Assembly (NCBI GenBank): GCA_030704615.1
Contig: CM060731.1
Location: 80,414,001-80,478,000, forward strand
Source of the DNA: Takakia lepidozioides
Lineage: Eukaryota > Plantae > Bryophyta
Reading direction: 5' to 3'
Length of the DNA stretch: 64,000 bases
Shown: positions 11,393-62,390 of the stretch, piece by piece
How the letters are laid out: every line of letters starts with the position of its first letter
Position numbering within the stretch: position 1 is the first letter of the stretch
Program-made: the position numbers and the translations under genes
Notes under the pieces: model-generated
Databases searched by the model: none
Told to the model about the DNA's origin: nothing
The model's input: the letters and a program-made list of their open reading frames with translations, nothing else

Positions 11393-11560
11393 GGGAGACA
11401 GAGGGAGAGAGGGGGCAACAAAGAAAAAACACAAAGGTGGGGGGGGAGGGGGGGGGGGGGGAGGATGACTGAGCAGCTGCTACTCAGTCAATCCCCCCCC
11501 ACCTTCCTCTTTTTCTTTTTGTTTCCTGATCTCTCCCTCTCTCTCCTCTCTCTCCCTCTG
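11393..11560. repeat. Large imperfect hairpin (GA tract, G-run, TGACTGAG-loop-CTCAGTCA, C-run, TC tract); paralogues at ~23200-23350, ~26110-26275 and a centrally deleted one at ~4857-4910
   Basis: Inverted symmetry read directly from the sequence. Confidence 0.85.
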
Positions 11561-20260: not shown

Positions 20261-20301
20261 TCCATCGAAGGTCGCCTTCTGTCCGCCATAAGCCGCCGCA
20301 C

Positions 20302-21270: not shown

Positions 21271-21310
21271 GATGAGGCCGATCCCAAGGACGAATGCGTA
21301 CTAACCTCTA

Positions 21311-21323
21311 GTTTGTGATACCA
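21311..21323 (-). promoter_or_regulatory. Primer-binding site (tRNA-iMet type, TGGTATCA)
   Basis: TGGTATCAC begins 2 nt inside the 5' LTR end on the minus strand. Confidence 0.85.
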
Positions 21324-21325
21324 AG

Positions 21326-25000: not shown

Positions 25001-25569
25001 ATAAAGGTATAGGGGTAGTCTGAAAAACTTTACTCAGACATATCCCTCCTCCCCTGTTGGGGCAAGCTGTGGCTGCAGACCTGCTCTAAACCTTTTATAT
25101 AGCAGGGCAAGGATTAAAATCTGTGATGTCCAAGTGTTCTTTTTTTCTCTCCGATTTCTTAAAAAAACCCTCCATGACACCCATGGGGTTTGAATAAGTA
25201 TGCTGGATGTTATAGCTGGCGGACAGTAAATCTGTATGACCATTGACCTGCAACACATCAAGGCCAAAATAAGGCCAAGTACCCGCCATACCACCCAGAC
25301 CTCTGAATGTATATCCTGACATGACTGGTGTCAATCAGCATAAGTGGCATATCTTTGGGTATGAATAATACTGACATTGAACACATTACTGTACATGGAT
25401 GTAATTCTGGATTTTCTTTAAGCTTGATGATTGATGGGTGGTGCCATTGTTAAAGTGGCTGATATGGCTGATTATCTTCTTATTCATGACAACGACCTTC
25501 GACGGTATCATGTTTTGTCGTGACATGAAATAAAAGTATTTTCACTCTCTTATATGCTGGTGCTCTCTT

Positions 25570-28358: not shown

Positions 28359-28805
28359 TTAAGCTCCCGACGAGATAAATTCAAGGTCAGATGGTGGGTT
28401 CAGCTGCAACATATGTCCAACACCAGATATCCTAAGTTAATCGACTCTATATCTTGGAAACAGGACCGCCCTGTCAAACAAGGTAAGCCCTGGGAGAAGA
28501 GAGTAGAAGAGATTGTCAAGGATCTGAATCTGGACCCGCAAGTCTTGACCTTGCTGGATAAACCTGACTTAGAGAGTGTAGTGTCTAAAGCCATGTCTGT
28601 TACCAGAAAATTGTCCGATGAAAATGAAGTTAGGAAGAAAACTTCCCTGAAACTGTTTCCAGTCTGTGACATGGGGGAGGACATCATGGATGCGCTCAAG
28701 GGTCTATCCCACTCTTGGCACTAGACCTAAATTTAAACTCAGGGCAGGAAGACTACCTTTGAATAGTAAACAAAAGCAGAGAAGAAAGGGAGAGTGCAAT
28801 TTCCC
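28359..28805 (+). mobile_element. LINE fragment (post-RT C-terminal region)
   Basis: ORF 28413-28724 matches the LINE C-terminus (NTRYPKLIDSISWKQDRPVKQ); reverse complement of ~46480-46925. Confidence 0.92.
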
Positions 28806-31239: not shown

Positions 31240-34200
31240 TGTCTCCCATTGAGATTAGATTGAGGGCACAGTACCGAAGCCCTGAATTGGCCAGACTCAT
31301 GAGATGACACGCCTCGCATCGAAGCCCCCAGGGAAAGGTGCGCGGGCCACAAGATTCACAAGCATGGAGGCATATTGAAGAGATGTGGCCTTTTCTCTTG
31401 GATGACCCATGACATGTCCACCTCGGCTTCTCCTTGGATGGGGTCAACCCATTCTCTGTCCAGTCATGTAGTCATTCCACTTGGCCGGTGACCATGGTGA
31501 ATTACAACATCCCTCCGTATCTTTCAATTAAAAAAGACCATATCATGTTGGCTGCCATTGTGCCAGGTGAGTGTACTCATTTCATGTTTATTATTGCCTT
31601 AGACTTTACATTAAACTTCTGATCTCTGACGCAATTCGGATGCAAGATTGATGAGTGACATAATCATGAAGTAAGACGTGTAATTCATTTTGTAGTATAA
31701 TTTGCATATTGGTGGAGCATTGAAACAATGATGTGAGTGTCTCACAGGGAAAAAACAAGTGGCAAACATGGACACGTACTTGCGACCTCTTGTTGATGAA
31801 CTTAAGGAGCTATGGAGGGGGTTCCCGACATTGGATGTTTCACTTGACCCTATGGCCGGACAATCTTTTTAAATGAGAGACATCTTGCTTTGGACAATGC
31901 ATGATTATCCAGGTATATTATGTTCCCCATGAACAACCCGCGTACATTCACTTGTCAATGCCGGATAATATCGATGAGGATTGGGATTGATTGAAGTAGC
32001 GGCGACAGTCTTGTGCACCGTAGTGGGATAGATGGCATTATGGGCCATGCACATGACAACTTTTTGTTTTTGTTAATGTGGCGGGATGTGTAGTACAAGA
32101 CTAACTATTTGCTCGGGGCTAAGCACGAAAGGGTACCATGCATGCTTGCATTATGACGATGATCTTGATGCACATAGCTCCCGCCATCTGCACAAGATGG
32201 TGTATCCCAACTACCGCAAATTTTTTCCTATGAGCCATCGATGGAGAAGAAGAGAGAAACACTTGTTTGATGACAAAGAGGAAGTACGTCCCCCCCCCTA
32301 TGACACCGTCCGGGCAGTTTTGGGAGGACCGATGGAAGGAGGTCCATGCAGGCACGGATGGTGAAGTGGACGTGCCCGACATGAAACGACTTTCAATCTT
32401 CTACGAGTTGCCATATTGGGCGGTACATATTCCACAAAAACACCGTCAATATCCGTATGCATGCATGTGATATTGCACATTTGGTATGCGTTGCATTGTC
32501 ACTTTCACGTAAATTTTTTTGTGTAAGTCTTTGTGGGTGGGGATATATGTAGGACCTGAAGATTCGCCATCTTCTAGATCCCATGCATATTGAGAAGAAT
32601 GTCTGCTCGTCTTTTTTTTGGGTTCTTCATGGCACGCCGGCAAAGAAAGGAGTGGCTGCAAAATGAGATTCTCTCGGTGTTAGAAAGGAGTTTGAGGAGC
32701 AGGGTCGCATGCGCCATCTATGGGCCGAACAAAATGGTGTGGACCCAAATGGTGTTGTACGGTGGAAGTATAGGCGTGCACCTTGGCAATGGACAAAAGA
32801 GGAATACAATAAAGTGATAGCCACCATAAGTGCTGTCCGAACACCAACTGGTTATGGGTCATCCCTCCGTACGAAGTTCAGCGAAGAAGACGGGGTCCAT
32901 GGTTTGAAGTCTCATGAGTACCACAATCTATTGCAAGACATCGATGCTCTAGAGGTTGGTATATGGGATGCTTTACGTGGGACATTGACTCCCGAGGTTC
33001 GTGAGACAATCTATAGATTGGGAGGCTTGTTCCGGTGGATTTGCTCCAAAGAGTTGGAAGAAGTAGATTTTCCACGCATGAAGAAGGAGGCGGCGGAGGT
33101 AATATGTATGTTGGAGCTGCACCTTCCTCCCTCCTTCATTGACATCCAAGTGCACTTGGTAGTGCACTTAGTGGAAGAGGCTTCGATTGCCGACCCCGTT
33201 CATTCTTGGTGGATGTACTTCATTGAGCATTATATTAAGACTTTGAAAAGATTTGTAAGACAAATGGCGCACCCGGAGGGTAGCATGGCGGAGGGGTATA
33301 TGTTGCAAGAAACTATGTTCAACACCCCATCTATACATGAGTGGGAGGTAAGATACAATAATCTTGTTCAGCAACGAGAGGAGGAGACGCTTGCATGGAG
33401 GCGGAACCATCCAAGGCCGGTTACTAGACGCCCACGACGAGGAGCGGGCCGCCGAAATGTTCATTCATAAAATTTGCCCATGGAATTGCAGCCTCTAAGT
33501 TCATTCCAACAGTGGCTTCGGACTTCAGTTTATGACGCCGTTGCTCAAGGAGAGGTGGTTTCAGATTTGGTGCAAGACATTGCAAGGAGCCCCTCTCAAT
33601 TCGCGACCTCATACACGGCGGTTTGGGTTCACGATCATCATTTCCGCATTCGTGCTCTTGACATGAAGCGCAAAACAACCTTTGATTCTGGCTTGTGTGC
33701 CACATATTGGCAAGACTCCGTGTGGGGCAAGGGAGATACACGACCTGCTATGAGCAAACTTGAGTACATTGGAGAGCTTGAGAGCATACTCCAACTTCAG
33801 TATACAAGGTACAAGCCTTTTCTCTTCAAGGGAAGGTGGTTCCAGGCACATCTTGTGGGGCCCTCCGCAACACTAGTGCAAGATGATTATGGTTTCATGC
33901 GCGTCAATGCAGATAGGGTCAACCCTATTCATCGTCCCTCCGATGAGCCTTTTTCACGGCCTTCAGACATGTAGCAAGTTTATTTTCCGATGACAAAACA
34001 AGAGGGGGGAATTTGAAGGTAGTTGTGCACGCTCAGCCAAGAGGAAGACGTATCTATCATGGTCTCGGATCTCTATGGGGTGAGGCAATTGCGGTGGACG
34101 GAGAGACTGGTCATAATGATGCTGATGATGGAGGTTGGGTAGAGGGGGTAGAAGAGGATGATGACGCCCCAGACAATGCATCCTGGATCCTATATGATGA

Positions 34201-34384
34201 AGCTCTAGAAGATACAGATGTTGGAGAAGGAGACGAAGACACGGCCATTGATAACAATGTGAAGGATGATTCGGAGGTGCCTTTTGAGGGCCGGGCCATT
34301 TATGACGATGACTCCGATGACCAAGAAGACTTGCAGCTTGATGAGGATGAAGAAGCTCCGGATGATGATGTTCAAGTTGATTAG
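31240..34384 (+). pseudogene. CACTA TnpD transposase (Transposase_21, DUF4218, DUF4216), intron-containing, with stops and frameshifts
   Basis: DGVNPFS..STWPV..NYNIPP, DTYLRPLVDELKELW, HDYPG, LDPMHIEKNV, GLKSHEYH, PPSFIDIQVHLVVHL, PEGSMAEGY, DDYGFMRVN..DEPF, acidic tail. Confidence 0.95.
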
Positions 34385-41600: not shown

Positions 41601-44600
41601 TACTAACTTTGTTCTCATTTTCAGGTTTCCTAATTGTGACACAAGGCATTGGCTACCGTAGACCAGCCAGAAGAGCAATGTACATCGACCCGATCATGTA
41701 GAAGGTGTACACATGTACTCCAGTATGCTGCTGCCACAGGGCCTAGCACAAGATATCAGGGATTAGTTCGCCATCAAACGGCACAAAATCCTAGTTCCAC
41801 TTTGGCATAAAAAAGGATAATCCAAAAACAGACTATCAAATTTCTACTAAGAGAAATATGCTAAACAGATATGTGCTGCTTTCAAAGTATTAGAGTCTTG
41901 TCAGGGGCTGACGCCAGTCGTATGACTTACCTTGGAACGGGAGAATGTACTCATAAGACGTTGTTTACCGTAGCCTTGTGGCCATTGACCCCGTGCCCAG
42001 TTTGAGCGGAAAAGAGACATAAGACGTTGTTTGCCGTAGCCTTGTGGCCATTGACCCCACGCCCAGTTTGAGCGGGAACAAAAGGGACAGAACCTACCTC
42101 TGTCAGGGGCTGACGTTGGTAGTAAGACTTACCTTCATATATAGAATTAATCCGGGTTTTCCAGATATCCTCTAGAAATCCCTTCACACAAGCATCAATC
42201 TGCTGTGTGTGATTTGCCCATAAACTAGGCCTCAGGAGGGCCTGGGCTTTTGGCTCAGCCTCGAGACTTTCAAAGTTGGTAAACAGGGGTACAGCCACAA
42301 TTCTCTTGATAGAATTGAAGAGAGCGTCTCTTTGGTGAGATAACCCAGGACAGTGTATCAGAAAATGAATACTTGTCTTCAGATTGCCCACACAACGGGC
42401 AATTGCACTCTCCCTTTCCTATCTGCTTCTGTTTGCTGTTCAAAGGTAGGCTTCCTGCCCTGAGTTTAAATTTCAGTCTAGTGCCGAGAGTGGGTAGACC
42501 CTTGAGGTCATCCAAGATGTCCTCCCCCATGTCACTGACTGGAAACAAGTTCAGGGAAGTTTTCCGCCTAACTTCATTGTCATCAGACAATCTCATGGCA
42601 ACAGACATGGCTTTGGACACTACAGCCTCTAAGTCAGATTTATCCAGCAGGGTCAAGACTTGCGGATCCAGGTCCAGAAAACATTGAAGAGCAGAGGGGA
42701 GAGAGTACATCCTTGAGCTACACCTTGGTCTATGTCAAAGAAGTTGGACTTCTCTGTTAACAGTGACACAGCTTTTGGTGTGAGCATACAAGTTGGGGAC
42801 AACTCTCCACATCTTTCCCTTGATCCCACAAGACCAGAGGCGGAACCATAGGCCATCCCTCCACACTGTGTCATAAGCCTTTTTGACATCCAGGAAAAAA
42901 ACATAAGTGGGTTTCCCTTCTTTTTTCCTTCCCTGGATAATCTGGCTTAGAGTGAAGATATGATCCACACAGCCCCTGTTTCGCCGAAAGCCAGTTTGGC
43001 CTTCGTGGAAACAACCTCTAGACTCCAGATCAACCTCGAGACGAGTACTTATAACTCTGCAGAATGTCTTGCCAACAGCATTGAGGAGCGTGATGCCACG
43101 GTAGTTCCCCGGTTCTTCTCTGTCACCCTTCTTGTATAGATTGACAATGACCCCCTGTCGCCAGCGAAAGGGGATCATGTCAGTCTTCCAGATAAGGTTA
43201 AAGAGGAGAACTAGGGCCTCTATCATGGGATCGCCACCGTGCTTGATAAGCTCGTTGACAATACCATCAGGTCCACCAGCTTTATATCCATTTAAATGTT
43301 CAATTGCTTCCACAATCTCAGAAGAACTAATGGGAGCATTATAAGCCATTGAAATATACTCCAGTTCATCAGGGCTGTTTTGAATCATAGGAACAGTCTT
43401 TCCAACTGTGTCCCTCCATTCAGCAGAAGACCCCTCACTGTTAGACCTAGAAGTTCTGCCAAGGATACTGTAGTGAGTTTCAAAGGTTTTGACAATGTCA
43501 ACCGATGAAGTCACCACTGCACCTTAGTAGTCTTCAGCGCTTGTACTTGCTGACCGTTTTTCGGCTTGTACAAACGTTGAAGGGCCAACCAGAATTTCTT
43601 GTCATTACCACCATGGTGGTTTGAGTTCATTTCACTGTATAACTTGTCCCAGTATAATTTCTTCTGAGACCTAACAAGCTGATTGATATCTTTACGGAGC
43701 TGGTAGTACCTCGCCCACAATTCTCTGTTGGTTTCCAAATTGCAGCACTCTTTATAGAGGGCTCGTCTCTCAGCTATCTTGAGTTTAATCTCATTAGTCC
43801 ACCAATTAACTGCTCTACCGCAGACAATTAGTTTCCTCCCAATGATCTTGTCAGCCACGGAGGAAACGAAACTCTCCCAAGAGTCCACTGCTCTTTCGAC
43901 TTCATTTCTTGCGTTAACAGAGCGTGACTGAAGTTCTTGGAGTGATTGGACAAAATGAGGGAGAGCCTCTTGCAAGGCCTGGACGTACTCAGCCTTGACC
44001 TCCTCATTGTGGAATTTTTCTATGCGCCACTTCCGAATCGAACGTTTCACAGATCTCTTGGTGGTGGGAAAACACCTTTTGATCTCAGTCCAAACCAGGA
44101 AGTGGTCAGAGGTACCAATATCAGTTCTGTCGATCAACACATTGGCACACTGGGGGAACAAAATTTTGTCCATTATGATATAGTCCACAATGGAACGTTC
44201 CCCAGTTTGGGATTTCTCACGAGTCCACTGCACTTGGTCACCTCTTGTCCTGTTATTCAAGGTCAAAAGCTGAAGCTCTTCTAGACAGTTAATTAACCGT
44301 CTGCCATTAGAATTCAGTTCCTCACCAAAAGGTCCAATGATATCGTCCTGATGGATCCCTTTGCCCACCCGGGCATTGAAGTCCCCCAATAGTACCACCT
44401 GACCTTTGGCAAGGAAACAGTCCAGCTTTACATCTTCGAAGGCCTTGTCTGCGTCAGCACTAAGGGTCCCCTCTGTGGGCATGTAAACACAACCAACAAA
44501 GAGGTCCTTTGTACTCATGCCGCCCTTCAAATTCAGTTTTAGCCAGATACTATGCTCGTACCTCAAACCCTTGTTGATAATTTCACAATTGTCAAACAAG

Positions 44601-47600
44601 AAATCACGGACAAAGAATCCGACCCCTTTTTGACCGCGTTTGGCAGAGGCTGCCTTGAGAGTACACATCTTACCTGCCCATTTATAGCCAATGACATCTC
44701 CAACCAGTTTACCCGACGTTTCCCATGTTTCTTGCCCAGAACTTGTCCCACTTCAAGTTGTTTCCTTTGGTTGGTCAACCCTGAGAAGTTGAAAGTGGCC
44801 AGCTGCAAGCCAGCCCTTTGCGTGTGAATTGTTTGTCGTCTAGGTAGCTTGTGATTGCTCCTGGACGGCCAACCGTTCTGCAAAGGGGGGACAGTTACCC
44901 CATGTGTAGATTTTGCTCGTCTTGTGTAAACTTTGAGAATTGGTAAACCATTCAGGGTACCAAATCTTTCAGTTACACGACGCACAGGCTCCGCACACAT
45001 AGGGGCAGATTGTCCGTCAGACTGCTTGGGGACAATTACCCCGTGTATAGATTTTGCTCGTCTTGTGTAGACTTTGAGGATTGGTAAACCATTTAGAGTA
45101 CCAAATCCTTCAGTTACACGACGTTCAGGCTCTGCACACTTAGGGACAGATTGTCCATCTGACGGCTTGGGGACAATTACCCTGTGTATAGAATTTGTTC
45201 GTCTTGTGTAAACCTTGAGGATTGGTAAACCATTCAGAGTACCAAATCCTTCAGATTCAGGACGTTCAGGTTCCGTACACTTAGGGGCATCTTGTCCTTC
45301 TGGCTGTTTGGATTCAACCTCATCCAGAGCATCAAACCGATTAGAAACTCTCAAGTTGAAGTTGTTGCCCTTGGTTGTCTTCCTAGAGCGCCCCATTGAA
45401 TCACCAATGTCTAAGACCGCTCTCCAGCCAGTCAAGGGACGAACTTCTTTGAGATTGAATTGATGCGGGACTCTATTAGAAGCACTTTTGGTCATTGCAA
45501 CCTTCAACGTACCCCTGTTATCAAGTCTCGAGATGGTACCATTAGCCATGAAATCCAAGCCTAAGCTAGAGCATGTAGTTTTAAAGAACACATCGTCCAT
45601 CCTGGGATTCACCCCAAAAACTACACATGAAGCCCTAGATTTGGCATAAGTAACCAATTCCCAGGGATCACCCTGAGGAGTGTTGATGTTGATAGGAGCT
45701 AAATTTTTTATTGTTTTCGCAGGCCATAAGTTTAAGCACAGGAACCAACCCGAGCCCAAGTGCCGAGTATGCTAGACAGAGCATACGACTGCCCAATTTG
45801 AGCGGAGGGGCTGCCCCCAAGCGGTAGGAGTCCGCTTGTTACCATTCAGAGATCACACTCCAGGGAGTTGCAGGGAATGGCCCGTGTAGGCATATTCTAA
45901 AGAGGGAAAGGCCCCAAGCTTTCCAACTAAATCCAATGCACTACCTTACCTGAAGCAAAGCGCTTCAGGTCGAAACAAACAAGAACACGAGGTCACAAGG
46001 CCGGCATTTAGTCACAGAGACATTAATGTACTCCCGTTTCAAGTCCACCCAATGTCAATAGGCTTCCTAGAGGACAGGGAGACTAGAGAGAGATTGTACT
46101 CATAAGACGTTGTTTGCCGTAGCCTTGTGGCCATTGACCCCGCGCCCAGTTTGAGCGGGAACAAAAGGGACAGAACCTACCTCTGTCAGGGGCTGACGTT
46201 GGTAGTAAGACTTACCTTCATATATAGAATTAATCCGGGTTTTCCAGATATCCTCTAGAAATCCCTTCACACAAGCATCAATCTGCTGTGTGTGATTTGC
46301 CCAAAAACTAGGCCTCAGGAGGGCCTGGGCTTTTGGCTCAGCCTCGAGACTTTCAAAGTTGGTAAACAGGGGTACAGGCACAATTCCCTTGATAGATTTG
46401 AAGAGAGCGTCTCTTTGGTGAGAGAACCCCGGACAGTGTATCAGAAAATGAATACTGTCTTCAGATTGCCCACACAACGGGCAATTGCACTCTCCCTTTC
46501 CTCTCTGCTTCTGTTTGCTGTTCAAAGGTAGGCTTCCTGCCCTGAGTTTAAATTTCAGTCTAGTGCCGAGAGTGGGTAGACCCTTGAGGTCATCCAAGAT
46601 GTCCTCCCCATGTCACAGACTGGAAACAAGTTCAGGGAAGTTTTCTGCCTAACTTCATTTTCATCAGACAATCTCATGGCAACAGACATGGCTGAGGACA
46701 CTACAGCCTCTAAGTCAGATTTATCCAGCAGGGTCAAGACTTGCGGATCCAGGTCCAGGTCCTTGAGGATCTCTTCTACTCTCTTCTGCCAGGACTTAGC
46801 CTGTTTGACAGGGCGGTCCTGTTTCCAAGATATAGAGTCGATTAACTTAGGATATCTGGTGTTGGGCATATGTTGCAGCTGAAACCACCATCTGACCTTG
46901 AATTCATCTCGTCGGGAGCTTAAGGACAGAATGCCAAACTCACCCCGAACAGCCACATTGGCTGTTTTGGAGCATGCTGACATACACTCCTTAAGCACCC
47001 CCACTTGAATGGATTCTAGAGACTTAGCCTGGTTGGAGTTATCAACCCATATAGCAGATTCATACTCCAAGGCAGGTCTAATAACGCGACAAAGCATGGT
47101 TTTCTTAACCTCAGAGGTGACCCCTCTGCAGTGGAAAAATTTAGTGAGCCCCAGAGCTTTGCCCTTGCCAGTTTGAACAACTTTCCGGATATGTGCATCC
47201 CAATTACAATTGGAGGAGAACTCAACGCCCAGGTAAGTGTAGGAAGGGAGGACCGGGATCTCTTGGCTACCCCACTGCCACTTAAGATCACTTCCTCCCT
47301 CTCCTCTGTCGTTGAATGCTACCACTGCACATTTGCTGACATTAGCCTCTAGCCCCCAAAGATCAAAGTATCTCTTCGCGCAATCAATCAATTCCTGGAG
47401 ATTGGTTGGAGTCTCCCCTATGCCTGCGAAGTCATCCGCAAACATAAGGGCTGGTATGGTGGTATCACCCACCCTTAACCCAAATCCCTCACTTTCCACA
47501 TCCTCGAGGAGTTGATTGATGAAAACATTGAAGAGTAGAGGGGAGAGAGTACATCCTTGAGCTACACCTTGGTCTATGTCAAAGAAGTTGGACTTCTGTC

Positions 47601-50600
47601 CGTTAACAGTGACACAGCTTTTGGTGTGAGCATACAAGTTGTGGACAACTCTCCACATCTTTCCCTTGATCCCACAAGACCAGAGGCGGAACCATAGGCC
47701 ATCTCTCCACACTGTGTCATAAGCCTTTTTGACATCCAGGAAAAAGACATAAGTGGGTTTCCCTTCTTTTTTCCTTCCCTGGATAATCTGGCTTAGAGTG
47801 AAGATATGATCCACACAGCCCCTGTTTCGCCGAAAGCCAGTTTGGCCTTCGTGGAAACAACCTCTAGACTCCAGATCAACCTCGAGACGAGTACTTATAA
47901 CTCTGCAGAATGTCTTGCCAACAGCATTGAGGAGCGTGATGCCACGGTAGTTCCCCGGTTCTTCTCTGTCACCCTTCTTGTATAGATTGACAATGACCCC
48001 CTGTCGCCAGCGAAAGGGGATCATTTCAGTCTTCCAGATAAGGTTAAAGAGGAGAACTAGGGCCTCTATCATGGGATCGCCACCGTGCTTGATAAGCTCG
48101 TTGACAATACCATCAGGTCCACCAGCTTTATATCCATTTAAATGTTCAATTGCTTCCTCAGTCTCAGAAGAACTAATGGGAGCATTATAAGCCATTGAAA
48201 TATACTCCAGTTCGTCAGGGCTGTTTTGAATCATAGGAACAGTCTTTCCAACTGTGTCCCTCCATTCAGCAGAAGACCCCTCACTGTTAGACCTAGAAGT
48301 TCTGCCAAGGATACTGTAGTGAGTTTCAAAGGTTTTGACAATGTCAACCGATGAAGTCACCACTGCACCTTTAGTAGTCTTCAGCGCTTGTACTTGCTGA
48401 CCGTTTTTCGGCTTGTACAAACGTTGAAGGGCCAACCAGAATTTCTTGTCATTACCACCATGGTGGTTTGAGTTCATTTCACTGTATAACTTGTCCCAGT
48501 ATAATTTCTTCTGAGACCTAACAAGCTGATTGATATCTTTACGGAGCTGGTAGTACCTCGCCCACAATTCTCTGTTGGTTTCCAAATTGCAGCACTCTTT
48601 ATAGAGGGCTCGTCTCTCAGCTATCTTGAGTTTAATCTCATTAGTCCACCAATTAACTGCTCTACCGCAGACAATTAGTTTCCTCCCAATGATCTTGTCA
48701 GCCATGGAGGAAACGAAACTCTCCCAAGAGTCCACTGCTCTTTCGACTTCATTTCTTGCGTTAACAGAGCGTGACTGAAGTTCTTGGAGTGATTGGACAA
48801 AATGAGGGAGAGCCTCTTGCAAGGCCTGGACGTACTCAGCCTTGACCTCCTCATTGTGGAATTTTTCTATGCGCCACTTCCGAATCGAACGTTTCACAGA
48901 TCTCTTGGTGGTGGGAAAACACCTTTTGATCTCAGTCCAAACCAGGAAGTGGTCAGAGGTACCAATATCAGTTCTGTCGATCAACACATTGGCACACTGG
49001 GGGAACAAAATTTTGTCCATTATGATATAGTCCACAATGGAACATTCCCCAGTTTGGGATTTCTCACGAGTCCACTAGAGACTAGAGAGAGAGAGAGAGA
49101 GAGAGAGAATTAATGACAGGGACTTCAACGTCCACAGGGAACACCCATGACAGGGCAAAATAAAGAAAGCAGGAAACTTTACAACTTCTAGAGGAAGAAG
49201 AATAAGACGAAATTGTCCGAGGGAGGCCATGAGGGCCCTGGGAGAATGGTGCTTTCCAACCTGTGATTATACATTTATGACTTGGAAGTTTTCCACTCTA
49301 TGATTCCTCTACTTTTGTACAGATGATTGTGGAAGCTGCCGACAAGGGCGAATTGACACCCCTTGTTCTTCTTGTCATTCGGAACCGCCTTGAATTGGCA
49401 CGCCAAGATGTACGCCGCCTCTCTTTTAGGCCTTACAGGCCACCTGTCTGTTGCAGTGTAGCTGGAGTTCAATCATTAGGGCTGGTGACCTTCTGGCAGG
49501 TTCTATCAGTCCCATTCAGGGAGTAGCTGTATCCCTCTGGGGGAGGGGCTGTGGTGTGAGAGAGATTTACTTGTTGACTATGTGAAAGGTGGCTATGCTG
49601 TAAAGGGCATCAAAATTCGTGAGACATTGATCAAGGTTTGCTTTAAGGGCTGGCTTGATATTTTGAAGTGCAGAGTGTGAATTCAGCACTCTGAAAATAG
49701 AGAGCGACACAGGATCTACTCAGGAAGTTGTGCTTGCCGTGACTGGTAGTCCCTTTGTGCCCATCTTGGATGGAGAGGTAAAGGGGCATTAACTCGGCCT
49801 CCCAGATTCTTATTAGAAAGACTGTTACAATAGTTCTTCCAGTTTAGCTGTCAGTGTTGCCTTGTTCACATATGGAGGGAACAGGGGCGGAGGTCGTTGT
49901 ACTTGGGGACTAATCACAGCGAACAGTAAATATGCCGGAGACTTGCATGCATAGGAGCGGCAGATTTTCAACCCTTCCAGAGTGGTCAGACCCATCAAGG
50001 TCCCGACGTTAGTGTTTTCTGGGAGGGAGGTGGCCAAGACCTAGCATTATAGCATATGGATGCTGGGAGGGGTGCAGGATGAGAGAGATGCAATTCAAGC
50101 TCTTGATCTGCTCTACCGTCGGGTTGAGGTGTGCTTTCTCAAACCTGTTTTTTGCTAAGCCTGTTGAATTCCCCTAGTGTGTAAGTCAGAATGGTATCAT
50201 AAGAAGGGACTGGCGCTTGTACTATGACAGAGGCATCTCTGGTCTCTTATCATTTATTACGGTTCAAATTGTACAAGTCTAACCTCACAAATTTTCAGAC
50301 CACATGGATGGTCTACCCGATTCTAATGAGGTTGCTTGGCCTTTAAAACCCTTAAGAGCCCGTCCATGCAAATCCCCTGTTTTAATGACCGGGATGGTCT
50401 CTTCTCAGGAGCCAGTTTGAGCAGCTTATAGTTCCAAAAGGTCCCATTCTTATGATGCTATCATCCATAACCTTGCAACGGGGCTGTCGAGTTTGGATGC
50501 ACACAAGTGCCTCTGTGAGCGCGTTAAGGGCAGTTGCGGGAAAATAAGTATATACCTGCAGCTGAGCTGCAGTAAGCTAAACCCTGGTGGGTGCAAACCC

Positions 50601-52070: not shown

Positions 52071-53395
52071 TGCCAAACATTTCACCTCTGTTAGACATCT
52101 AAGTAGGCGGCATAGGATGTCTCTGTGAGTCATTGGGCCCTTTTTGGATCAACGTTTTTTGCAACATTGTGCTAGCAAGTAGGAATGATGACTGTTAATA
52201 CCAGTCACTCAAAGCCCTTCGGCTATGTCCATTTTGGTTTTCTGAGGAGAGGCAAGACACTGATACAAATATCTCTCGCATTGTGGATTCTGGTGGCGAT
52301 TCGTTGGTTTGTAACTCAAACTGATGAAGACACATTGAATCCAGTGAGGGAGAGAGAGAGGTGGAAGAGGGGATCAGCCCCACTGTAGTGCCAAATGATT
52401 GTGTACAAATATAGGACATACTGATCGCGAGGTTCTTTAGCTCTATCACACAAAGATGCTTAGCTTTCAGCTTGTTGTATTTGGATTTCGCTAGACACTC
52501 ATCAGCATCTAGATGACGTGGTTGTTTATCAGTACTTGTTCTTATTATTCTACTCAATAAACAGTTGATAACGAGCCTTAATTTCTTCCATTTCATCCTT
52601 TTCAGCCTCTTTCAACAGCTTACCCATGTCTTTAGCTCTCTCAGCAATCACCTGTGAACAACTACAAACAAGGCTCAACTGGTACACAAGTATCTGTTGA
52701 TAGAAGTCGGGAATACTGGCAGTTTCTTTGTGATGAGGACTTCTGAAGAAGACGCTCCTGACAATTGCATCACCGTTGATTCAGTGGTTATGACCACCAA
52801 AACGTTCTGAGATCACGGAGGATGCCTCTCCCCAAAATAAAGAGGTAAAATGGGCATTGGGTAATCTCAAGAGTGAATGAAACACGGTAGTGGCAGGCTC
52901 TGCCTTGGTGCCCTATTAGGGCACCTTCATCACTGTTGGGTTATCAATTTTTCAATACGAACAGTTATGGTCACAGTTCGCCCATGTGGGCTCCACCTCT
53001 GCTTAATTCACCCCACTTGTTCCCCACACAAACTCTGTTAAGCTGTAGGCCAGAAATCATCGACTATCCATAAATCATCCAAGGAACTATCTACAGTCCA
53101 TCAATTCGTATATTTTTATTCATTGTATGAGCCAATAGATAAAATGTGAATTACAAATTAATTTAATTTTTTTTATTTGTATCTATTGCCCGGAGCGACC
53201 GTTCACAAATCAAGCCCTTTAAGTATAGTGAGAGGGTGCGCTTCCTTGGGGGCGTCATATATACCGTCCCTGGACAACCGTTTAGGCATTTTTGCGCCTA
53301 ATAATAAATTCAATCAATCAGCAAATTGGCATGTGTTGAAAACCATTTCTCACATTAGGCATCTTCATGCTATAATTTTTTAGAATTAGGCACAT

Positions 53396-53893
53396 TGTAA
53401 TGGCCAGATTCCTTCCACCTACCATTTTGTCATTGGATGAACAGATGATTGGATGATGACCGTTGAAAAAGGGTTTGGATGAAACAGCTGGAGACAATCT
53501 ATTTTTAAACTAAGTATTGTCTTTTGTTAACAGCTAGTTTATCTCTAAAATAGAATGAGGTGGCGTCCTATCTGGATAGACACCCGGATGGCATTCAGGT
53601 GACCAATCAAGACATGCCACTTGGTCAGATAAGATTGTGGGCCTTCGTTTATAAAAAGGATCAACACGACGCTTAAGGCGGCGGTGTATGTTTGGTGTAA
53701 AACCCTATTGTACATGTGTGTGAGTTTTGGATGAAAGGGCTGTGAATAAGGATGTGCTGTTAGGTTGGGTGAATGATTCTGTCTCCTCTACCTTGGATCC
53801 TGCCTATCTCGCTAGCCTGCTTTACCGAGCATACATTCCCCTTATAGCTTGATACCCCGAGAGGAAGAGGAATAACGGGGTGGGCGAGAATCT
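53396..53893 (+). repeat. 5' LTR of element C (ends GAGAATCT, no terminal CA)
   Basis: Direct repeat of 60731-61211 (about 10 substitutions and one 17-bp indel by eye). Confidence 0.93.
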
Positions 53894-53904
53894 TGGTGGA
53901 GATG
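53894..53904 (+). promoter_or_regulatory. Primer-binding site, tRNA-Ala type (TGGTGGAGATG)
   Basis: Abuts the end of LTR homology; complementary to the ..AUCUCCACCA 3' end typical of eukaryotic tRNA-Ala. Confidence 0.75.
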
Positions 53905-53966
53905 GTTGTGTTTTTGCTTGCTCCTGGTTTTCACAGTATCTGCTTCTACTTCTGTAACCTGCAGCG

Positions 53967-54897
53967 ATGGCCTCGTCTTCTGATCCTTTCACTGCCGTTG
54001 AGCCCAAGGAGTACAAGGACACTCCTGCTGGTCATTTTGAGTCGATTTTCGCCAGCATTGTGCGTGCTTCGGTTGATCCTAGTCTGGTGGTTGAAGTTGA
54101 TTATCCGCCCCTTGGTGCAGCTGTTGAACGCCCTGAATTAGTCCTTGACACCCCTTTTGATCACTGGGTGGCTCAGTTTGAGTTGACTGCTGCGTTGGAA
54201 GGTTTGAAGCCCACCCACACCCCCCAAGAAGAAGCGGAGCAGCGGCGGAAGTGTATTCAGGCCTTTAGAAGGGGCCCGAGCGGCCAAGGCCGTGCAGCGA
54301 CTCTTTGCTGCGGAGATAGCTCGCAAGCTTCCACTACCTGAGGCCAAAGATAAACTTTTGAAGGATTGCCGGCTGTCGTGGGCTGAACTAGGTATTCTGC
54401 AATTCACCGTCGTTGGGGAGGTTGATGGCGAGTGTGAGAACTTCATTCCGCCCAACTTGCCCAGTGCGCATCGTTTGTGGGAGCTGGTCAAAGGTGGCAG
54501 TTTGCTTGTCTTGGCCAACTTGCGGCCTACCTGGAAACCTGACGACAATGTGGACATCACCTGGGATGACCATGTCACAGGCATTCATGTCTCTCGCTTT
54601 CCTCATACTGTGCATGATATTTTGATTTTCCCTGCTCTTGTGTTTAGACAGAAATGATTGGGTTACTACTTGCCTGGCTTTCCTGTTACTGATTATCCAG
54701 TGCACACACTGCTTGCCAAAGAAAAGCTTATTCGCTCCATAGTTCGTGTGGCTTTCTGGCTCAAAGTGGACGAAGAGTTGTGGCACTCTCTGGGTGAAGG
54801 TGTTTACATGCTTCATAAACACCGGTTCATAAGTGGCTATTGTATCAAGGACTGGGAGTCCAAATTGCGTCCTGCACGAACCTCCAGTAGAAGGTAA
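53967..54897 (+). pseudogene. Extra ORF of unknown function upstream of gag (~310 codons; one frameshift, one stop)
   Basis: ORFs 53967-54341, 54292-54657 and 54658-54897 are contiguous between PBS and gag and have globular-like composition. Confidence 0.6.
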
Positions 54898-54932
54898 CCA
54901 CTTTGTTTTTTTTACAAACCTGATCAACTACA

Positions 54933-56140
54933 ATGTCTGTCACTACTCGGTCTGGCAAAGAGCCCTGGAATATGCTAGATGAGTTGCATGATGTGGATCT
55001 TACTGATGATGTGAAAGATGATGGTGATGCTCTTCCTGATCCTATGTGTGAAACTTTGTCTCCTGAAGAGCCACGGCCACCCCAGGGGTCCCTCCAGCCT
55101 CTGGTAATGTGCCTAACCTCAATATTCAGGGCATTTGTGATGTTATGGTTACGCTATCTAGTTGTCCAGCTATGCAGCTCTTTTTGGATAAACAAGTAGG
55201 TTCGCCTTCAGTTACCACGCTCAAGGACGTTCATCGTGCTCACAAAAGGCCTTATCCTGACTATGAGGTAGGCCAAGACTTTGACAACTTTCTCAATTTT
55301 TTCGAGATGAGTGTCAAATTCAATGAGCTGCCAGCTTCTATGATTACTGATTCCTTTCGTTTTTGTCTCAAAGGTGAGGCTCGTGATCTCTTTGAAGCTA
55401 GTATCAAGGATCAGGGTGACTTGCGATGGGGAGTGGCCAAGCAGTTGGCGCTTCAGTTGTTTCGTACAGACATGCCCATCAATTACACCATGCCCGATCA
55501 TCCTTATCAACCTGGTGAGAGTATTTGGAAATACTATACTGACTTGAAAACCACGGTGGTCAAGGCCATTCCGGTACCCTCTGAACGTACTGCCATTCTA
55601 AAAACCTACTTTATTACTGGATTGTCTGCCTCTGATCAAGTTTACCTACAAAAGCATCCTTATCGCAATGAGCAGCATATGGTAGAGATGATGGATGAGC
55701 GCATGCGGTTTAAGAATGCTAAACTAGGCAAAGGTTGTCAGCCTGTTGTTCATTCTGCTCCTCAGCAGGTTTCCTACTATTCTCATGGGATTGCCATGAT
55801 TAAGGGTGGCTCTACAGAGGCCTCTCCCACATTGCTGGAGGAAGTTAAAAATCTACAACAAGAGCTGCATATTCAGCTTCAGGCTGTGAGGGCAGAAGGA
55901 TCCTGGAGGGCTGCACCTGTCAAGCCTCCTCCGGCTGACTCTCATCGTGGCCACACTCAGACTGGCCCACGGTATGAGGTACAAGGTAAACGTGTGGCCT
56001 GTTTCATTTGTGGGTCCCTGGAGCACTGGACTCACTTCTGCACTTATGCCGCTCTTGTCCCTGGTATGATTGAAGAACACAAACGCATTCAATGTGAACA
56101 GCGGGGCAAACAGCCTTTAAACGAACCCGATCGCTTGTAA
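54933..56140 (+). pseudogene. gag of element C (one frameshift near the N-terminus)
   Basis: MSVTTRSG start; LKGEARDLFE and YQPGESIWKYY..L capsid-like motifs; CFICGSLEHWTHFC zinc knuckle. Confidence 0.88.
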
Positions 56141-56199
56141 AGGGGCCAAGCGGTCATTCTTCCCCACACTTTGCACAAGATGACTCCATTGTTTATGTT

Positions 56200-58849
56200 A
56201 TGTTGTCCAATGAATTCAAAATGATGCATTGCGAAGCCAACAGGAAGCTTAGGAAGGAGAGAGTTCACCCTCTCATGACTCAATGTCACATAGGGCACCT
56301 CTCGTTTTCATGTGTTGTTGACACAGGCTGTACCATGTCTGCTGTTCCATTGTCTGTGGTTCGATTACTTGGTCTCAAGCTCACTCCAGCCAAGGGTCTG
56401 CAGGTGACCATTGCAGATGGCACACGTTATGAGCCTCTAGGTTTGGTCACCGTTCCCATCAAAGTCAGTTGCAAGTCGGTCACACTGACTTGTATTATCA
56501 CCATTGGTGAACAGTTGCTATTAGGCTTGGATTGGATGTGTGCTGCAGGGGCCAAAATTGATGTGGTTGAAAACGTCATGTGGCTTGCCAATGGGGCTCC
56601 CCCCCCCCCCCCCCCCATAAGGTGCAGCTCAACTCTGTTTCCCTGCTTGCTGGTTGTGCCACTGCACACCTTTCCCACATACGCACCCTTGTTGCTGAAA
56701 CCAAGCGGCAGGTGGGTGAGCAATACAACTGGACACGTTACTTTAACTTTGCCAAGACGGCTCCCCTCACCCTGTATCAATGGCAGCTCCATTTGCCTGA
56801 TAAGAAGAGTGGCCCTCCCATTCCAATCCCAGGTAACACCACTCTTCTTCACAATCCCACTGACTTTGTCATACCTGCCTCCTCCCAAAAAATTGTTTCT
56901 CTTGGCCTCACCTTTCTTTGTCCACAAGGTCATTATCTTGAAGTTGAGGGGTGGAAACGTTTGATGCTTTCCAAACATTGTTTGATTGCATCTGGAGTGC
57001 TAGATCGGGGCTTTTGTGGGGAGCTTCGCCTTCTTGTTGCCAACCCAGAACACATTCCTATCACCGTCCGCAAGGGTCAGGTCCTCGCTCGACTCACTGC
57101 CACTCCCTTAACAGATTTAGGAGAGGTGCAACATGCTTTAAGTTTTGCTGATATTGGCCTGTCAGATGATCCTATTGATCAATTGCATCTCTTAGCCCAA
57201 TCTGTCGCTGCACCCCAGGTTCGTCCCCTCACTCCTGCGCAATCTGCTCATCTTGATCAAGTTCTGACTGATATCAAAATAGGCTCTGGTCTCACTGACA
57301 TTGAGAGGTCTCGTTTATATCATATCATTCGTGACAATCTGGATGTTTTCAGTGCTGGTTCTCATGATTTGGGACGTACCGAGGTCCTCCACCATGACAT
57401 TGTCACTGATGGTAGCCCTGTCAAACAATACGCTTATAGATAAAGTGTCAAAGAACGTGAAATTATGCAACTCGAACTGACCAAGATGTTGGATGCAGGT
57501 GTTATTAAACCCTATATTTCCCCCTGGGCTAGTCCCATCGTCTTGGTTGCCAAAAAGGATGGTACCACTCGTTTATGCGTTGATTTTCGACGGCTCAATG
57601 CCCTGACTAAGAAAGATGTATATCCTTTACCTCACATTAATGATACTTTGGATCAACTCAATGGTGCCACTCTCTTCTCTTCCTTGGACCTTGCTGTGGG
57701 TTTTTGGCAAGTCCCCCTCACAGAGTCAGCCAAGGGAAAGACTGCGTTTACCTGTAAGATGGGTCTCTTTCAGTTTGAAACCATGCCTTTTGGATTATGT
57801 AATGCCACAACCACCTTTCAACGCCTCATGGATGTTGTTCTAGGCAACTTGCGCTGGGAATGTGCCTTGGTCTATGTTGATGACATCAACGTTTACTCCG
57901 CTGACTTTGACTCTCACATGTTGGATCTGAAGCGCGTTTTGTGCAGGCTTAGAGGTGTAGGTCTCAAAGTGAAAGCCAAGAAATGTGACTTATGCATGAC
58001 GGAGCTTCACTTTCTTGGCCACCTTCTCTCAGCCCAAGGCATTAGCCCTGACCCTACCAAAATTCAGGCTGTCTGGAACTATCTTACTCCACGTGACAAA
58101 AATTGTGTCCGTGCTTTCTTGGGTTGGCCTCTTACTATCGTCGTTTCATTAAACACTTTGCTCACATTGCTGCTGCGCTTAATCAGTTGTTATGCAAAGA
58201 TGTTCGCTTTCTTTGGGGCAAGTCCCAAATCACTGCTTTTGAGAAACTCAAAATTGCCCTCACCACTGCACCCATTCTGGTCTTTCCTGATTTCTCCCTT
58301 CCTTTTATTCTTCAGACTGATGCCTCTGACCTGGCTGTTTCAGCTATTCTATGCCAAAAGAGAAATGGCAGGGAACATGTTGTGGCCTATTCTTCCAGGC
58401 GGCTTGACAAACACGAGAAGAACTATAGTATTACTGATAAAGAAGGACTTGCCATTATTTTTGGGGTCAAACATTTTCGGCAGTATCTATATGGCTACCC
58501 CTTTGTTATTCAGACTGATCATCTTCCATTGAAGGCTCTCAAAACCCCACGGGCACTCTCGGGACGCTTGGCTCGCTGGTCACTCACTCTTCAGATGTTT
58601 GAATATGACATTGAGTATAAGAAGGGCAAAGCCAACAGCAATGCTGACGCTCTCACACGCACGGAGATTAAGTCCTCTGACCCTTATATCACCTTAGATG
58701 ACCTTGCACACTGCTCACCATCTGGTGCTTCACCCTTCCCTTCTTCTTCTCCTGAAGGATCCGATTTACTTGCCTTGATTGCCTTTGTTCCTCTTCTTCC
58801 ACCTGATCTCATGTCTGAATGGGATTTGCTATCCTTTTCTGCTGGCTGA
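56200..58849 (+). pseudogene. pol of element C: protease, dUTPase-like domain (~56860-57110), RT, RNase H
   Basis: VDTGCTMS; GVLDRGFCGELRLLVAN..ITVRKGQVLARL; SPWASPIVLV, CVDFRRLN, MPFGLCNA, YVDD; QTDASD, TDHLPL, NADALTR. Frameshifts at the poly-C run (~56600) and ~58120; stop at 57441. Confidence 0.93.
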
Positions 58850-59113
58850 ATTTGGTTTAGAGTGTTGTAATGTCACTGTGGTCATATTCTAGGTATGATA
58901 TCACTCTCTCTTCTATGATTACGCTGTCCCTTTCTGCTTCCAGTTATGGTTTTGGCACTGAATCCTCTCCATAGGGAATCTGCTTCTGTGCTTCATTGTC
59001 CTTGGTTGCATCTTCATGAAGTCCCCCTTGTCATTCAGTTGAGCTGGCAGCCATTCCCTGGAGATAACTGAGGCGGACACTCCGATAGGCTCACACTAAC
59101 CCAAGGGCTGGCT

Positions 59114-60475
59114 ATGGCAGCTGCACCCATGGAAGACCAACTTCATCGAGCCCTCCTCCAGAAGTGTAAGACCAACACTCATCTGTCGGGCCTCTCTTCC
59201 CGTCTCCTCAGGCAAGTCAACTATCATCTTCCCTCTCATCGGGAGCATGAAGGTAAATTGCTTAAGGTAGTTCATTTTCAAGGGCAAGAGACTGCCGTGG
59301 AGGTCCCTACTAGGAGCTCTATGCATGCGTTGCTTGAGCTTTACCATTGCTCATTATATGTTGCTCATCTAGGCGTTGACAAAACTGTCAAGCGGCTCCA
59401 AGAAAAGTACCATTGGAAGGGGTTAACTAAGGATGTGGCAGATTTCATTTCTAAGTGTGTTCCATGTAAGTCTAAAACATTGTTGCCTCGGACCGTAGCT
59501 CCTCTTAAATTACAACCAATTCCGGTGACTGATATGTTTGCCCGAGTTGGTCTTGATCTTGTTGGACCCCTCCGAACTACGACTAAGGGCAATAGCTACA
59601 TTGGTGTGGCTACTGATTACATGTCTAAGTGGGTTGAGATCCGACCGTTGGTTGCTAAGGACAGTGATGAGGTGGTTCAATTCTTCTTTGATGAAATCCT
59701 GCTACGCCATGGTTGTCCCCTTGAAATTTTAACTAATCAGGGTATGGAGTTTTGTAACCAGCTTATGGAGGTTGTGTGCTTTAATTTAGATGTCAAGCAT
59801 CGCTTGACTGCTCCCTACAACCCCCAGTGCAACGGGCTTACAGAGAGGTTCAACAAAACCATGTGCCAGTTGTTAGAAAAGAACGGGGCTCTCACTGAAG
59901 ACTGGGATGTTACTCTACCCATTCTCATATTTGCCTACAGGACCTCGGTGCATGCCAACACTCGTTTTTCCCCTTTTGAGTTATTGTATGGCCGCAAGGC
60001 TCGCACCCCTCTTCATGTCCCTGTGCTTCAGACTCAGGTTGCAGAGCCCATCATATGGGAAGACTTTCTTACTCACCTCACTTCTCATCGTTTACGTTCA
60101 TTAGAAATTGCTAAGCACAACATTCAGGTTTCTCAAGTTGCTCAGGCTCGAAATTATAACCGTAGGGTTGTTTACTCTGAAAAATTTTCTCTAGGCCAGA
60201 CTGTTTGTGTTCGATTGCAGCCTGGCAAACAGGTCACCAAATCCAAGATGCGGATTGATGGGCCTTATCTGATTCATGCGATTGTGTCTGGTTGGCAGTA
60301 CCGTCTTCTTCCTCAGCACCCTTCCACGGCGGAGATTGCAGGGACTGTTCATGTTTCTCAACTGGTCCCTTCTAAGCTGCAGTTTGATTTGACCTGCATC
60401 AACGTGGAGAATCGGCATGTGGTGTTAACTCCGAAGAAATGTGCTCGGCTTGATTCTGCTTCCATTTCTACCTAG
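59114..60475 (+). CDS. Integrase of element C (HHCC, D-N-E with second Asp mutated, GPY motif, no chromodomain)
   Basis: H..HLGVDKT..C..C, GLDLVGP, TNQGMEF, NGLTERFN, DGPY. Confidence 0.92.
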   Translation: MAAAPMEDQLHRALLQKCKTNTHLSGLSSRLLRQVNYHLPSHREHEGKLLKVVHFQGQETAVEVPTRSSMHALLELYHCSLYVAHLGVDKTVKRLQEKYHWKGLTKDVADFISKCVPCKSKTLLPRTVAPLKLQPIPVTDMFARVGLDLVGPLRTTTKGNSYIGVATDYMSKWVEIRPLVAKDSDEVVQFFFDEILLRHGCPLEILTNQGMEFCNQLMEVVCFNLDVKHRLTAPYNPQCNGLTERFNKTMCQLLEKNGALTEDWDVTLPILIFAYRTSVHANTRFSPFELLYGRKARTPLHVPVLQTQVAEPIIWEDFLTHLTSHRLRSLEIAKHNIQVSQVAQARNYNRRVVYSEKFSLGQTVCVRLQPGKQVTKSKMRIDGPYLIHAIVSGWQYRLLPQHPSTAEIAGTVHVSQLVPSKLQFDLTCINVENRHVVLTPKKCARLDSASIST

Positions 60476-60730
60476 ACTTCCTCATCACCCTGTCTTTTCC
60501 GCTACTCCCTCCCTAGGCTCTCTATCAGTTTCTTTCTCGTTCTTCAGGTTGCACACCTCACAAGCTAGGATTTTTTCACATCAAAGTTTTGTCCTTCGCT
60601 CAACTTGCAGAGCACGGTTTTCCTTGTTGCGGTTTTTTCATCCTATCTTGGTGTAACCATGAGTGACCCTGCTGTTTATTTAGCTTGCTCACTGGAGCTC
60701 GCTTCTCTGTGTGTCAGGAGGCTTTACATA

Positions 60731-61220
60731 TGTAATCTACTTTTTTGTCATTGGATGAACAGATGATTGGATGATGACCGGTGAAAAAAGGTTTGGATGA
60801 AACAGCTGGAGACAATCTATTTTTAAACTAAGTATTGTCTTTTGTTAATAGCTAGTTTATCTCTAAAATAGAATGAGGTGGCATCCTATCTGGATAGACA
60901 CCCGGATGGCATTCAGGTGACCAATCAAGACATGCCACTTGGTCAGATAAGATTGTGGGCCTTCGTTTATAAAAAGGATCAACACGACGCTTAAGGCGGC
61001 GGTGTATGTTTGGTGTAAAACCCTATTGTACCTGTGTGTGAGTTTTGGATGAAAGGGCTGTGAATAAGGATGTGCTGTTAGGTTGGGTGAATGATTCTGT
61101 CTCCTCTACCTTGGATCCTGCCTATCTCGCTAGCCTGCTTTACCAAGCATACATTCCCCTTATAGCTCGATACCCCGGGAGGAAGAGGAATAACGGGGTG
61201 GGCGAGAATCTGGCTTTACA
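60731..61220 (+). repeat. 3' LTR of element C (ends GAGAATCT-GGCTTTACA)
   Basis: Direct repeat of the 5' LTR plus 9 extra terminal bases. Confidence 0.93.
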
Positions 61221-62099
61221 ACATGAGATGAGAAAACATTTATTTTCTTAAGAATAAAATTACAAAATAGACGCCCAATGCCCATGGGCCCTTCCAGGCT
61301 CCAGCCACCTTTCGTTTCCTTTGAAACCCTAATATGATGACATTGTGGAGTCCATGCAAGGGCCTTTCGAAGTTACATGGAGCTCTCACAAATAGATTGC
61401 GATTTGTAGGAAGTTATTTCCGCACGCATATATTTGTATTGATTTTTATTCAATGAAATTTTGATCTTATTACAAACAACATGAGAGGAGGCTTGCAAGT
61501 TTTTTGTTGGAATTTTTGGGTAACAATTAGGCCAAAATCTGAAAAATTCACAGAATTGGTTAGGCCCTTTCATTTTGAATTAATTATAGCCTAAACGGTT
61601 GTCTAGGGACGGTATAAATACATATAGTGAGAGGAACCCCCTACCACTCAAAGACACCCTACAACTAGTTCTAATACACACACACAGATACATGGAGATA
61701 TTAGGTGTTGCCCGCAAAACACGTTTAGACAAATATGGAACAACATGCACTACCACTCTGAATGAGCGGGTTATATGGACAAATATAACTCCTGGGAAGT
61801 GGAGGAGAAACTCTTCGTGTTGATTCTTACACGGAATTTCAAATCCAGCTGATAGCAGACCACCACAGATGAACCAATTCAACGTTTTTCCATCGACAAC
61901 ATAGAAAAGAACTGCATGAACTGCAACCACTGGACAACACCTACATACACCCACCATGGAATTTGATAAACCTGAAAATCTTCAATGGGTGCAATCCAGA
62001 AATTCCAACCGATGGGATGAGAAATTACGATGTTGTAGGATGAATGCTATAGAAGAAAGGGTACGTGTACATGGGTCAAGACTCAAGACTCAAGATGTC

Positions 62100-62390
62100 G
62101 GTGTAGGGAAAGGTCCGAGTGAAGGGGGTTCCTAATTTGAGGGCCCCCAGCCATGACGTGAACTAGTCAACCACATGTCGTATGCACCATGTTCTACATG
62201 GCCACATGAAGTTGGTATAGGGGAAAACCGGAGTAGAGGGCATTCCTGATTTGAGGGCCCCAAGCCATGCCGTGAACGTTCCAACCAGTCAACCACATGT
62301 CGTGTGCACCATGTTTTGCATGGCCGGGTGAGTTTGGTGTAGGGGAGGCCGGAGTGGAGGGCGTTCCTGATTTGGGGCCCCAGCCCTACA
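62100..62390. repeat. Tandem repeat, ~114-121-bp unit x ~2.4
   Basis: TTCCT(A/G)ATTTG(A/G)GG at 62129, 62243 and 62364; AGTCAACCACATGTCGT occurs twice. Confidence 0.85.

Follow-up and report, generated by a model that had tools for sequence, protein, structure and literature searches.

The window analysed here, a 64-kb stretch of the genome of Takakia lepidozioides (64,000 nucleotides; contig CM060731.1 of assembly GCA_030704615.1, positions 80,414,001 to 80,478,000 of the forward strand), contains one degenerate member of a multi-copy Ty3/gypsy family, inserted in the form A...B-TA-A-B. Here A is the body of the long terminal repeat (LTR) and B is the 9-mer GGCTTTACA. Together with its primer-binding site (PBS) and target site duplication (TSD), the copy reads ACAT, A-PBS...AGGA, B-TA-A-B, ACAT. 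The layout is real and family-wide. It represents a variant way of forming Ty3/gypsy ends, seen here in a clade that stands apart, carries a dUTPase and has a B of 9 bp with TA as its spacer. The parts that make up the two ends are as follows.

53392..53395, plus strand: left TSD, ACAT, from the sequence and the empty-site contigs
53396..53893, plus strand: body A of the 5' LTR, 498 bp, starting TGTAAT and ending GAGAATCT, with no CA
53650, plus strand: TATAAA inside body A of the 5' LTR
53894..53904, plus strand: PBS TGGTGGAGATG, flush against A
60687..60733, plus strand: 47-nt block ending B-TA-TGT, retained in a diverged copy (a contig of run X5) with unalignable sequence upstream
60716-60721, plus strand: short purine patch AGGAGG within the 47-nt block, predicted plus-strand primer site
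60720..60728, plus strand: internal B, GGCTTTACA, the right-hand att end
60724..60735, no strand: palindrome TTACA-TA-TGTAA, predicted integrase cut site and putative att-att joint with a 2-bp spacer
60729-60730: TA spacer between internal B and the start of the 3' LTR
60731..61211, plus strand: body A of the 3' LTR, 481 bp, ending GAGAATCT
61212..61220, plus strand: terminal B, abutting the GAGAATCT end of the 3' LTR body
61221..61224, plus strand: right TSD, ACAT

The first-pass annotation of this DNA had described the flush A/PBS junction, the internal 9-mer with its TA, the terminal 9-mer and the TSD, and all of its coordinates were confirmed in the sequence. Throughout the window GGCTTTACA is present at 60720 and 61212 only, and TTACATATGTAA occurs a single time. 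Of 481 aligned bases in the two LTR bodies, 10 are different (Kimura two-parameter distance, K2P, 0.021), and the 3' copy has a 17-bp deletion 6 nt from its start, a feature absent from the first-pass annotation. B (GGCTTTACA) is nearly the inverted repeat of the LTR start in its intact form, TGTAATGGCC (compared with GGCCATTACA), and is therefore the right-hand att end. At the A/B joint, 61211/61212, the predicted place of end-to-end joining, there is neither microhomology nor any added base.

The copy shares with canonical Ty3/gypsy elements (Metaviridae) a tRNA primer site, outer ends TG...CA, a short TSD and the order protease, reverse transcriptase (RT), RNase H and integrase, the latter of the DDE type. 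Its RT and integrase are related to those of Gypsy elements. It departs from the canonical form in that its LTRs end at different points, the PBS has no CA in front of it, and B is placed between the purine tract and the 3' LTR, so that the tract does not adjoin the TG. The element thus has the order A-PBS...B-NN-A-B with an internal CA-NN-TG, which we refer to as the permuted-end Gypsy type. Its coding part comprises the following regions, in which the frames are interrupted by stops and frameshifts.

53958..54894, plus strand: broken upstream reading frames, no family match
55067..56140, plus strand: gag-like frame with a CX2CX4HX4C knuckle (identified by eye), no Pfam match
56281..56538, plus strand: aspartic protease (PF13975, E 2.6e-6)
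56853..57116, plus strand: dUTPase domain between protease and RT (PF00692, E 8.8e-7)
57549..58022, plus strand: RT (PF00078, E 5.5e-31), frame broken upstream and downstream
58214..58600, plus strand: RNase H (PF17917/PF17919)
59315..60475, plus strand: DDE-type integrase with zinc-binding domain and rve core (PF17921, PF00665)

One catalytic position of the integrase is non-acidic in this copy. No tyrosine recombinase was matched in the nine frames scanned, and in this respect the element differs from DIRS, PAT and Ngaro elements. We take the PBS TGGTGGAGATG to match tRNA-Ala; no tRNA genes are present in the window, and the assignment remains our assumption. One of the control loci (L003) has the same motif 1 nt after an LTR end with the canonical CA. 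At 24310 there is a motif resembling a PBS, which is not retained in its paralogue and was judged to be a chance match.

Calculated from base composition, the probability of a chance copy of the terminal 9-mer whose end is 0-4 nt from the start of the 3' LTR is about 2e-5. The short pattern as such, a small palindrome with an 8-mer that recurs further downstream, often arises by chance, with 23 occurrences in the window, and the weight therefore rests on its location at the LTR ends. A blind scan for a palindrome plus a repeated 8-mer was dropped as a test, being flooded by chance matches. The 47-nt block at 60687-60733 is longer than an att site requires, and may be a priming or end-pairing signal. 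Pairing of the U5/PBS region with the block upstream of B gave -37 kcal/mol, and 21 of 500 shuffles were as low; this comparison was made post hoc and is not used as evidence.

Other copies, empty sites and canonical relatives

Public sequencing contigs, among them those of runs X1-X6, were aligned to stretches of the element with one LTR. Runs X1-X4 represent one sample and X5 a separate study. Approximately 1,650-2,140 contigs mapped per run, most of them less than 99% alike, which indicates a multi-copy family, although copies cannot be counted from depth. Where A ends, at 61211, each of X1-X4 has three contigs that diverge into TGGTG(T/G)AGA followed by different leaders, and in one X5 contig A likewise runs directly into the PBS. 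The flush A/PBS junction is therefore common to other copies. Among the loose-end rows listed (24 of 1,611 and 13 of 47) no PBS was found after B, so that 5' LTRs ending in B, by which the first-pass annotation would have been refuted, did not appear among these rows; exceptions elsewhere are possible.

Conservation of the internal 9-mer, on which the first-pass annotation had likewise made its claim depend, was observed in the second study. One X5 contig, at least 80% alike, matches 60687-60733 as judged from two loose ends and depth bins, and continues into an intact LTR start, so that the B-TA-TG block is retained in a diverged copy. That copy starts its LTR with TGTG and has a shorter palindrome; the palindrome, which had been described as perfect, is so in the copy studied here but not in every copy. 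A further diverged copy, X1 record 8, crosses the A/B joint in register with 14 differences in 120 positions and no gap, and then enters other DNA. The A/B joint is precise in both copies in which it was seen (2/2).

Contigs of the empty site were found in X1 (six), X5 (one) and X6 (one). In these the 5' flank (...GAATTAGGC) is joined directly to 61221, which fixes the TSD as the four bases ACAT. The proposal that 4 bp is atypical for plant Gypsy elements was overstated, since 6.2% of LTR elements in plants have 4-bp TSDs and Phygy elements of mosses preferentially insert at NCGN, a target of four bases (PMC6317226, in the parts consulted). The ACAT of this one site does not fit NCGN.

All eight complete controls are canonical: the CA that closes the 5' LTR is followed by TGG at a distance of 1-4 nt, and the 3' TG adjoins a purine tract. 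They comprise the distant relatives L003, L047, L064, L068, L072, L078 and L080 and a second Gypsy in the window; loci without both ends were not counted.

15329-22057, minus strand: second Gypsy, in-window control; both LTRs end in CA, with an iMet-type PBS 2 nt behind and a 5-bp TSD, CTTTC

This second Gypsy is nested in a duplicated repeat of approximately 4.7 kb (9005-13668 versus 13938-25550).

By integrase and by RT, RNase H and integrase combined, the element groups with metagenome proteins (support 0.99-1.0), two of which also bear a dUTPase. These are P0274 and P0275, with 62-66% RT identity to the element, and in the combined tree the dUTPase-bearing proteins form a clade of their own (support 1.0). 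The trees were made with FastTree on partial rows with 45 background rows drawn at random, and PHD-bearing proteins served in them as stand-ins for Gypsy-7a, the algal element described below, whose resemblance in integrase motif was judged by eye. The DNA searches yielded 78 metagenome loci (29-39% integrase identity), 1 + 1 viral loci and one locus from a genome collection. A scan of 19 distant loci for polypurine tract and PBS motifs was mostly uninformative. The top profile-search matches were rejected as close relatives, as the ten that were looked up are long pseudoscorpion gene models. In three Gypsy polyproteins (P0245, P0254 and P0260) the protease and the RT are separated by an adenine methyltransferase domain of the Dam type, and P0245 and P0260 have an additional PHD finger before the integrase.

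Permuted ends in algal elements and other systems

In the sources consulted, the permuted layout has been noted twice in print, for Gypsy-7a_cRei of Chlamydomonas reinhardtii and for KnitGypsy-Dnmt3 of Klebsormidium nitens, in neither case with a mechanism. Gypsy-7a made 86 new insertions in one strain (PMC9940879), and its left LTR stops 8 bp short of where the right LTR ends (PMC9940879, Fig. 6 legend). According to the library entry in the supplement of that paper, the LTR ends ...ctttgt-gaccgaca and the internal part starts at the primer site and ends aagtaggggcg-gaccgaca-gc, followed by the LTR start tgtg. These ends give the layout described here, B being 8 bp long and the spacer GC. As in our element, the left LTR is cut short relative to the right one and is followed at once by the PBS, the missing bases lie internally after a purine run and are followed by a 2-bp spacer and TG, and the domains have the Gypsy order with a DDE integrase. 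The two differ in B and spacer (8 bp + GC in Gypsy-7a versus 9 bp + TA), in the core motif of the integrase and in the PBS; Gypsy-7a has 2-kb LTRs and a PHD finger, whereas our element has 0.5-kb LTRs and a dUTPase. The passages of Craig et al. on this element (PMC9940879) mention the missing 8 bp only, and neither the internal copy nor a mechanism.

The ends of the Chlamydomonas Gypsy library entries were read by eye for the 22 numbered families with an internal entry, 19 of which were paired at both ends (families 13, 17 and N3 fall outside the 19). The family's own LTR end plus GC was found at the internal 3' end in 12 of the 19, namely families 2, 3, 6, 7, 8, 9, 10, 11 and N2, and, on the reverse strand, 5, 21 and 24. 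The remaining seven (1, 4, 12, 15, 16, 19 and N1) are canonical. B is 6 to about 50 bp long in these algal families, and varies between them in step at the internal and LTR-end sites. Several of the permuted families have a G-rich tract upstream of B, and all 12 have the GC spacer, from which the TA of our element departs. In the text consulted, truncation of the left LTR is stated explicitly for 7a alone (PMC9940879). The entries Gypsy-5a, -19, -21 and -24 appear to be in reverse orientation in supplement S15 of that paper; when reread, 5a, 21 and 24 have the internal B-GC and 19 is canonical.

KnitGypsy-Dnmt3 is reported to combine a DIRS-type repeat structure with Gypsy domains (de Mendoza et al. 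2018, PMC5890265, Fig. 4 legend), and so resembles our element in having Gypsy domains within A-coding-B-A-B repeats. It differs in carrying a DNA methyltransferase; the B of our element is just 9 bp. The text on it in that paper gives no junction sequence, TSD or mechanism. A literature search likewise found no published mechanism for permuted Gypsy ends among the papers listed from the open sources it covered, with subscription journals, theses and Repbase reports outside its scope.

Cleavage of the kind needed is known from retroviruses. In the portions of the reports consulted, the integrases of foamy virus and of human immunodeficiency virus type 1 (HIV-1) can cut CA-NN-TG palindromes internally (PMC1180852, PMC1905944). 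At the 2-LTR junction of prototype foamy virus or HIV-1, as in the route proposed below, a DDE integrase yields both processed ends at once and the spacer is lost. In the retroviruses the palindrome arises by the joining of the two ends, and linear DNA can integrate as well. In our element the palindrome is encoded internally, at a distance of 9 bp from the predicted joint, and a linear right end would be without CA, so that the internal cut would be obligatory.

Formation of the ends

The right end of the complementary DNA (cDNA) of an LTR element is set during reverse transcription by the PBS. Textbook reverse transcription cannot place B on the right end, and we therefore consider end-joining followed by an internal integrase cut to be the best reading. 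On balance we lean towards the cDNA being joined end to end and then cut by integrase 9 bp beyond the joint, where the palindrome is situated. Minus-strand synthesis does not reach the terminal B of the 3' LTR, and a daughter element must therefore obtain its B from the internal copy. This argument of the first-pass annotation holds, and the same layout is found in an active element.

What is observed is the layout, a TSD of 4 bp, an integrase of the DDE type, and the return of this layout in further copies and in an algal element that is still active. The course that we propose is as follows. The minus strand would begin at the PBS, which would give a right cDNA end ...GAGAATCT without CA. 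The plus strand would begin directly after AGGA with the G that opens B, giving a left end B-TA-TG..., and the linear cDNA would be B-TA-A...B-TA-A. Blunt joining of its two ends would create a closed or nicked 2-LTR circle form with the joint A/B-TA-A; the joint may be made by RT or by a host ligase. Integrase would then nick both strands after the CA on either side of TA and insert the DNA with a 4-bp stagger, and TA would be lost in repair. A cut after each CA of A/B-TA-A reproduces the observed provirus exactly. Joining and cutting would probably take place within the integration complex, with both ends still bound there, since only the palindrome beside the joint seems to be used.

Several points weigh against this course. 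The purine tract is only AGGAGG here, which makes the plus-strand start a prediction. On a free circle integrase would meet two equivalent palindromes, and mirror insertions would be expected half the time; none is described for Gypsy-7a in the text consulted (PMC9940879), which suggests an end-coupled reaction. Only approximately 40% of HIV circle joints are perfect, according to the part of PMC5314604 consulted, versus the precise joints in both copies here. The predicted A/B-TA-TG joint (61220 back to 60729) was not among the rows listed (13 of 47 loose-end rows, with one unrelated joint listed), although this is weak evidence, since genomic contigs would rarely contain such DNA. The sample of runs X1-X4 is possibly the source of the window. 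CA-NN-TG is absent from the closer Glomeromycota-type loci L002, L006 and L044 (two families, 5' LTRs out of view), where a purine tract precedes TG. The next neighbours of the dUTPase clade are Glomeromycota-type elements and PHD-bearing polyproteins, with a support of just 0.72, and a single clade with Gypsy-7a is not established. Searches for DNA of the nearest protein relatives gave distant elements only, none of them in the nearest clade. The element appears to work like Gypsy-7a, with which it may share a clade.

The circle route proposed in the first-pass annotation thus stands in part: the layout recurs and the internal B is required, but the circle is a prediction, and a jump by RT on a linear cDNA would give the same provirus. 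In that linear variant, RT would finish the plus strand at ...GAGAATCT, jump to B as a template and add B(-TA), and integrase would trim 2 nt on the right and 11 nt on the left of a molecule that is never circular. This is a possibility to be taken seriously, though we give it clearly less credence than end-joining. It gives the same provirus, accounts for the precise joint and for the use of the end-proximal palindrome only, and is in line with cytoplasmic, RT-made LTR-LTR joints as proposed by Delelis et al. (PMC1180852, in the part consulted). Against it, a homology-free jump would be required in every cycle, and trim lengths of 8 to about 50 nt would be needed across the families. A jump that continued past TA would moreover give a nicked circle, which is the end-joining course itself. 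It is improbable that two cDNAs join head to tail, or that integrase first releases a B fragment from the left end, which is then ligated to a right end: the inserted sequence would be identical, but a retained 9-bp duplex or two full cDNAs per event would be needed, and no tandem joint was found among the rows listed.

That the pattern is a one-off accident is very unlikely, whether as a canonical element that lost 9 bp from its 5' LTR and by coincidence has the 9-mer before its 3' LTR, or as one insertion that went wrong. Only one copy is fully assembled and it is otherwise damaged, and the loose-end rows listed are a fraction of all. The low chance of the 9-mer's location, the same two junctions in other copies from two studies and the similar active algal element nevertheless largely refute an accident. 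The split direct repeats also bring to mind tyrosine-recombinase elements of the PAT/Ngaro kind, which presumably insert from circles. Their A...B-A-B repeats are similar to those of our element, in which B is just 9 bp, and A-coding-B-A-B is the DIRS-type order (PMC5890265, in the part consulted). Insertion of a circle by such a recombinase acting in trans is, however, the least credible of the routes considered, as the element encodes a DDE integrase, has a PBS and no tyrosine recombinase in its scanned frames, and shows TG...CA ends, a lost 2-bp spacer and a 4-bp TSD.

Surroundings and implications

The insertion site is flanked by 31-bp inverted repeats, 94% identical, at 53257-53287 and 61589-61619, and its flank is highly repeated in reads. 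The element was therefore inserted within a host repeat resembling a miniature inverted-repeat transposable element (MITE). Elsewhere in the window two tandem copies of the long interspersed nuclear element (LINE) type, with RT and endonuclease frames, occupy 41941-49076 on the minus strand and are 98-99% alike over matched stretches, and LINE-type fragments are present at 8015-8647 and 28359-28805. Frames bearing DUF4218 at 32667-34384 presumably belong to a CACTA-type transposon, and three diverged tandem units of 114-122 bp lie at 62091-62381.

Our reading extends, with slightly better than even confidence, to Gypsy elements of at least two lineages, the TA-spacer dUTPase plant clade and the GC-spacer algal families. 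In these, cDNA end-joining would be obligatory, the right att would be encoded only internally, and integrase would be a site-specific endonuclease acting on joined DNA. LTR finders demanding TG...CA on both repeats would probably miss such families or misplace their bounds. If the reading is true, some LTR elements with a DDE integrase have in the 2-LTR circle form their productive intermediate. Whether such circles are a dead end, as is usually assumed, or an integration precursor has been disputed for retroviruses since the 1980s, as outlined in the parts of PMC1180852 and PMC5314604 consulted, and the retroviral question is hard to test because linear ends work too. In the elements described here the linear right end has no CA, so that some end-joining or end-copying step must be obligatory. 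With an active element of the same layout in laboratory strains of Chlamydomonas, the question becomes directly testable.

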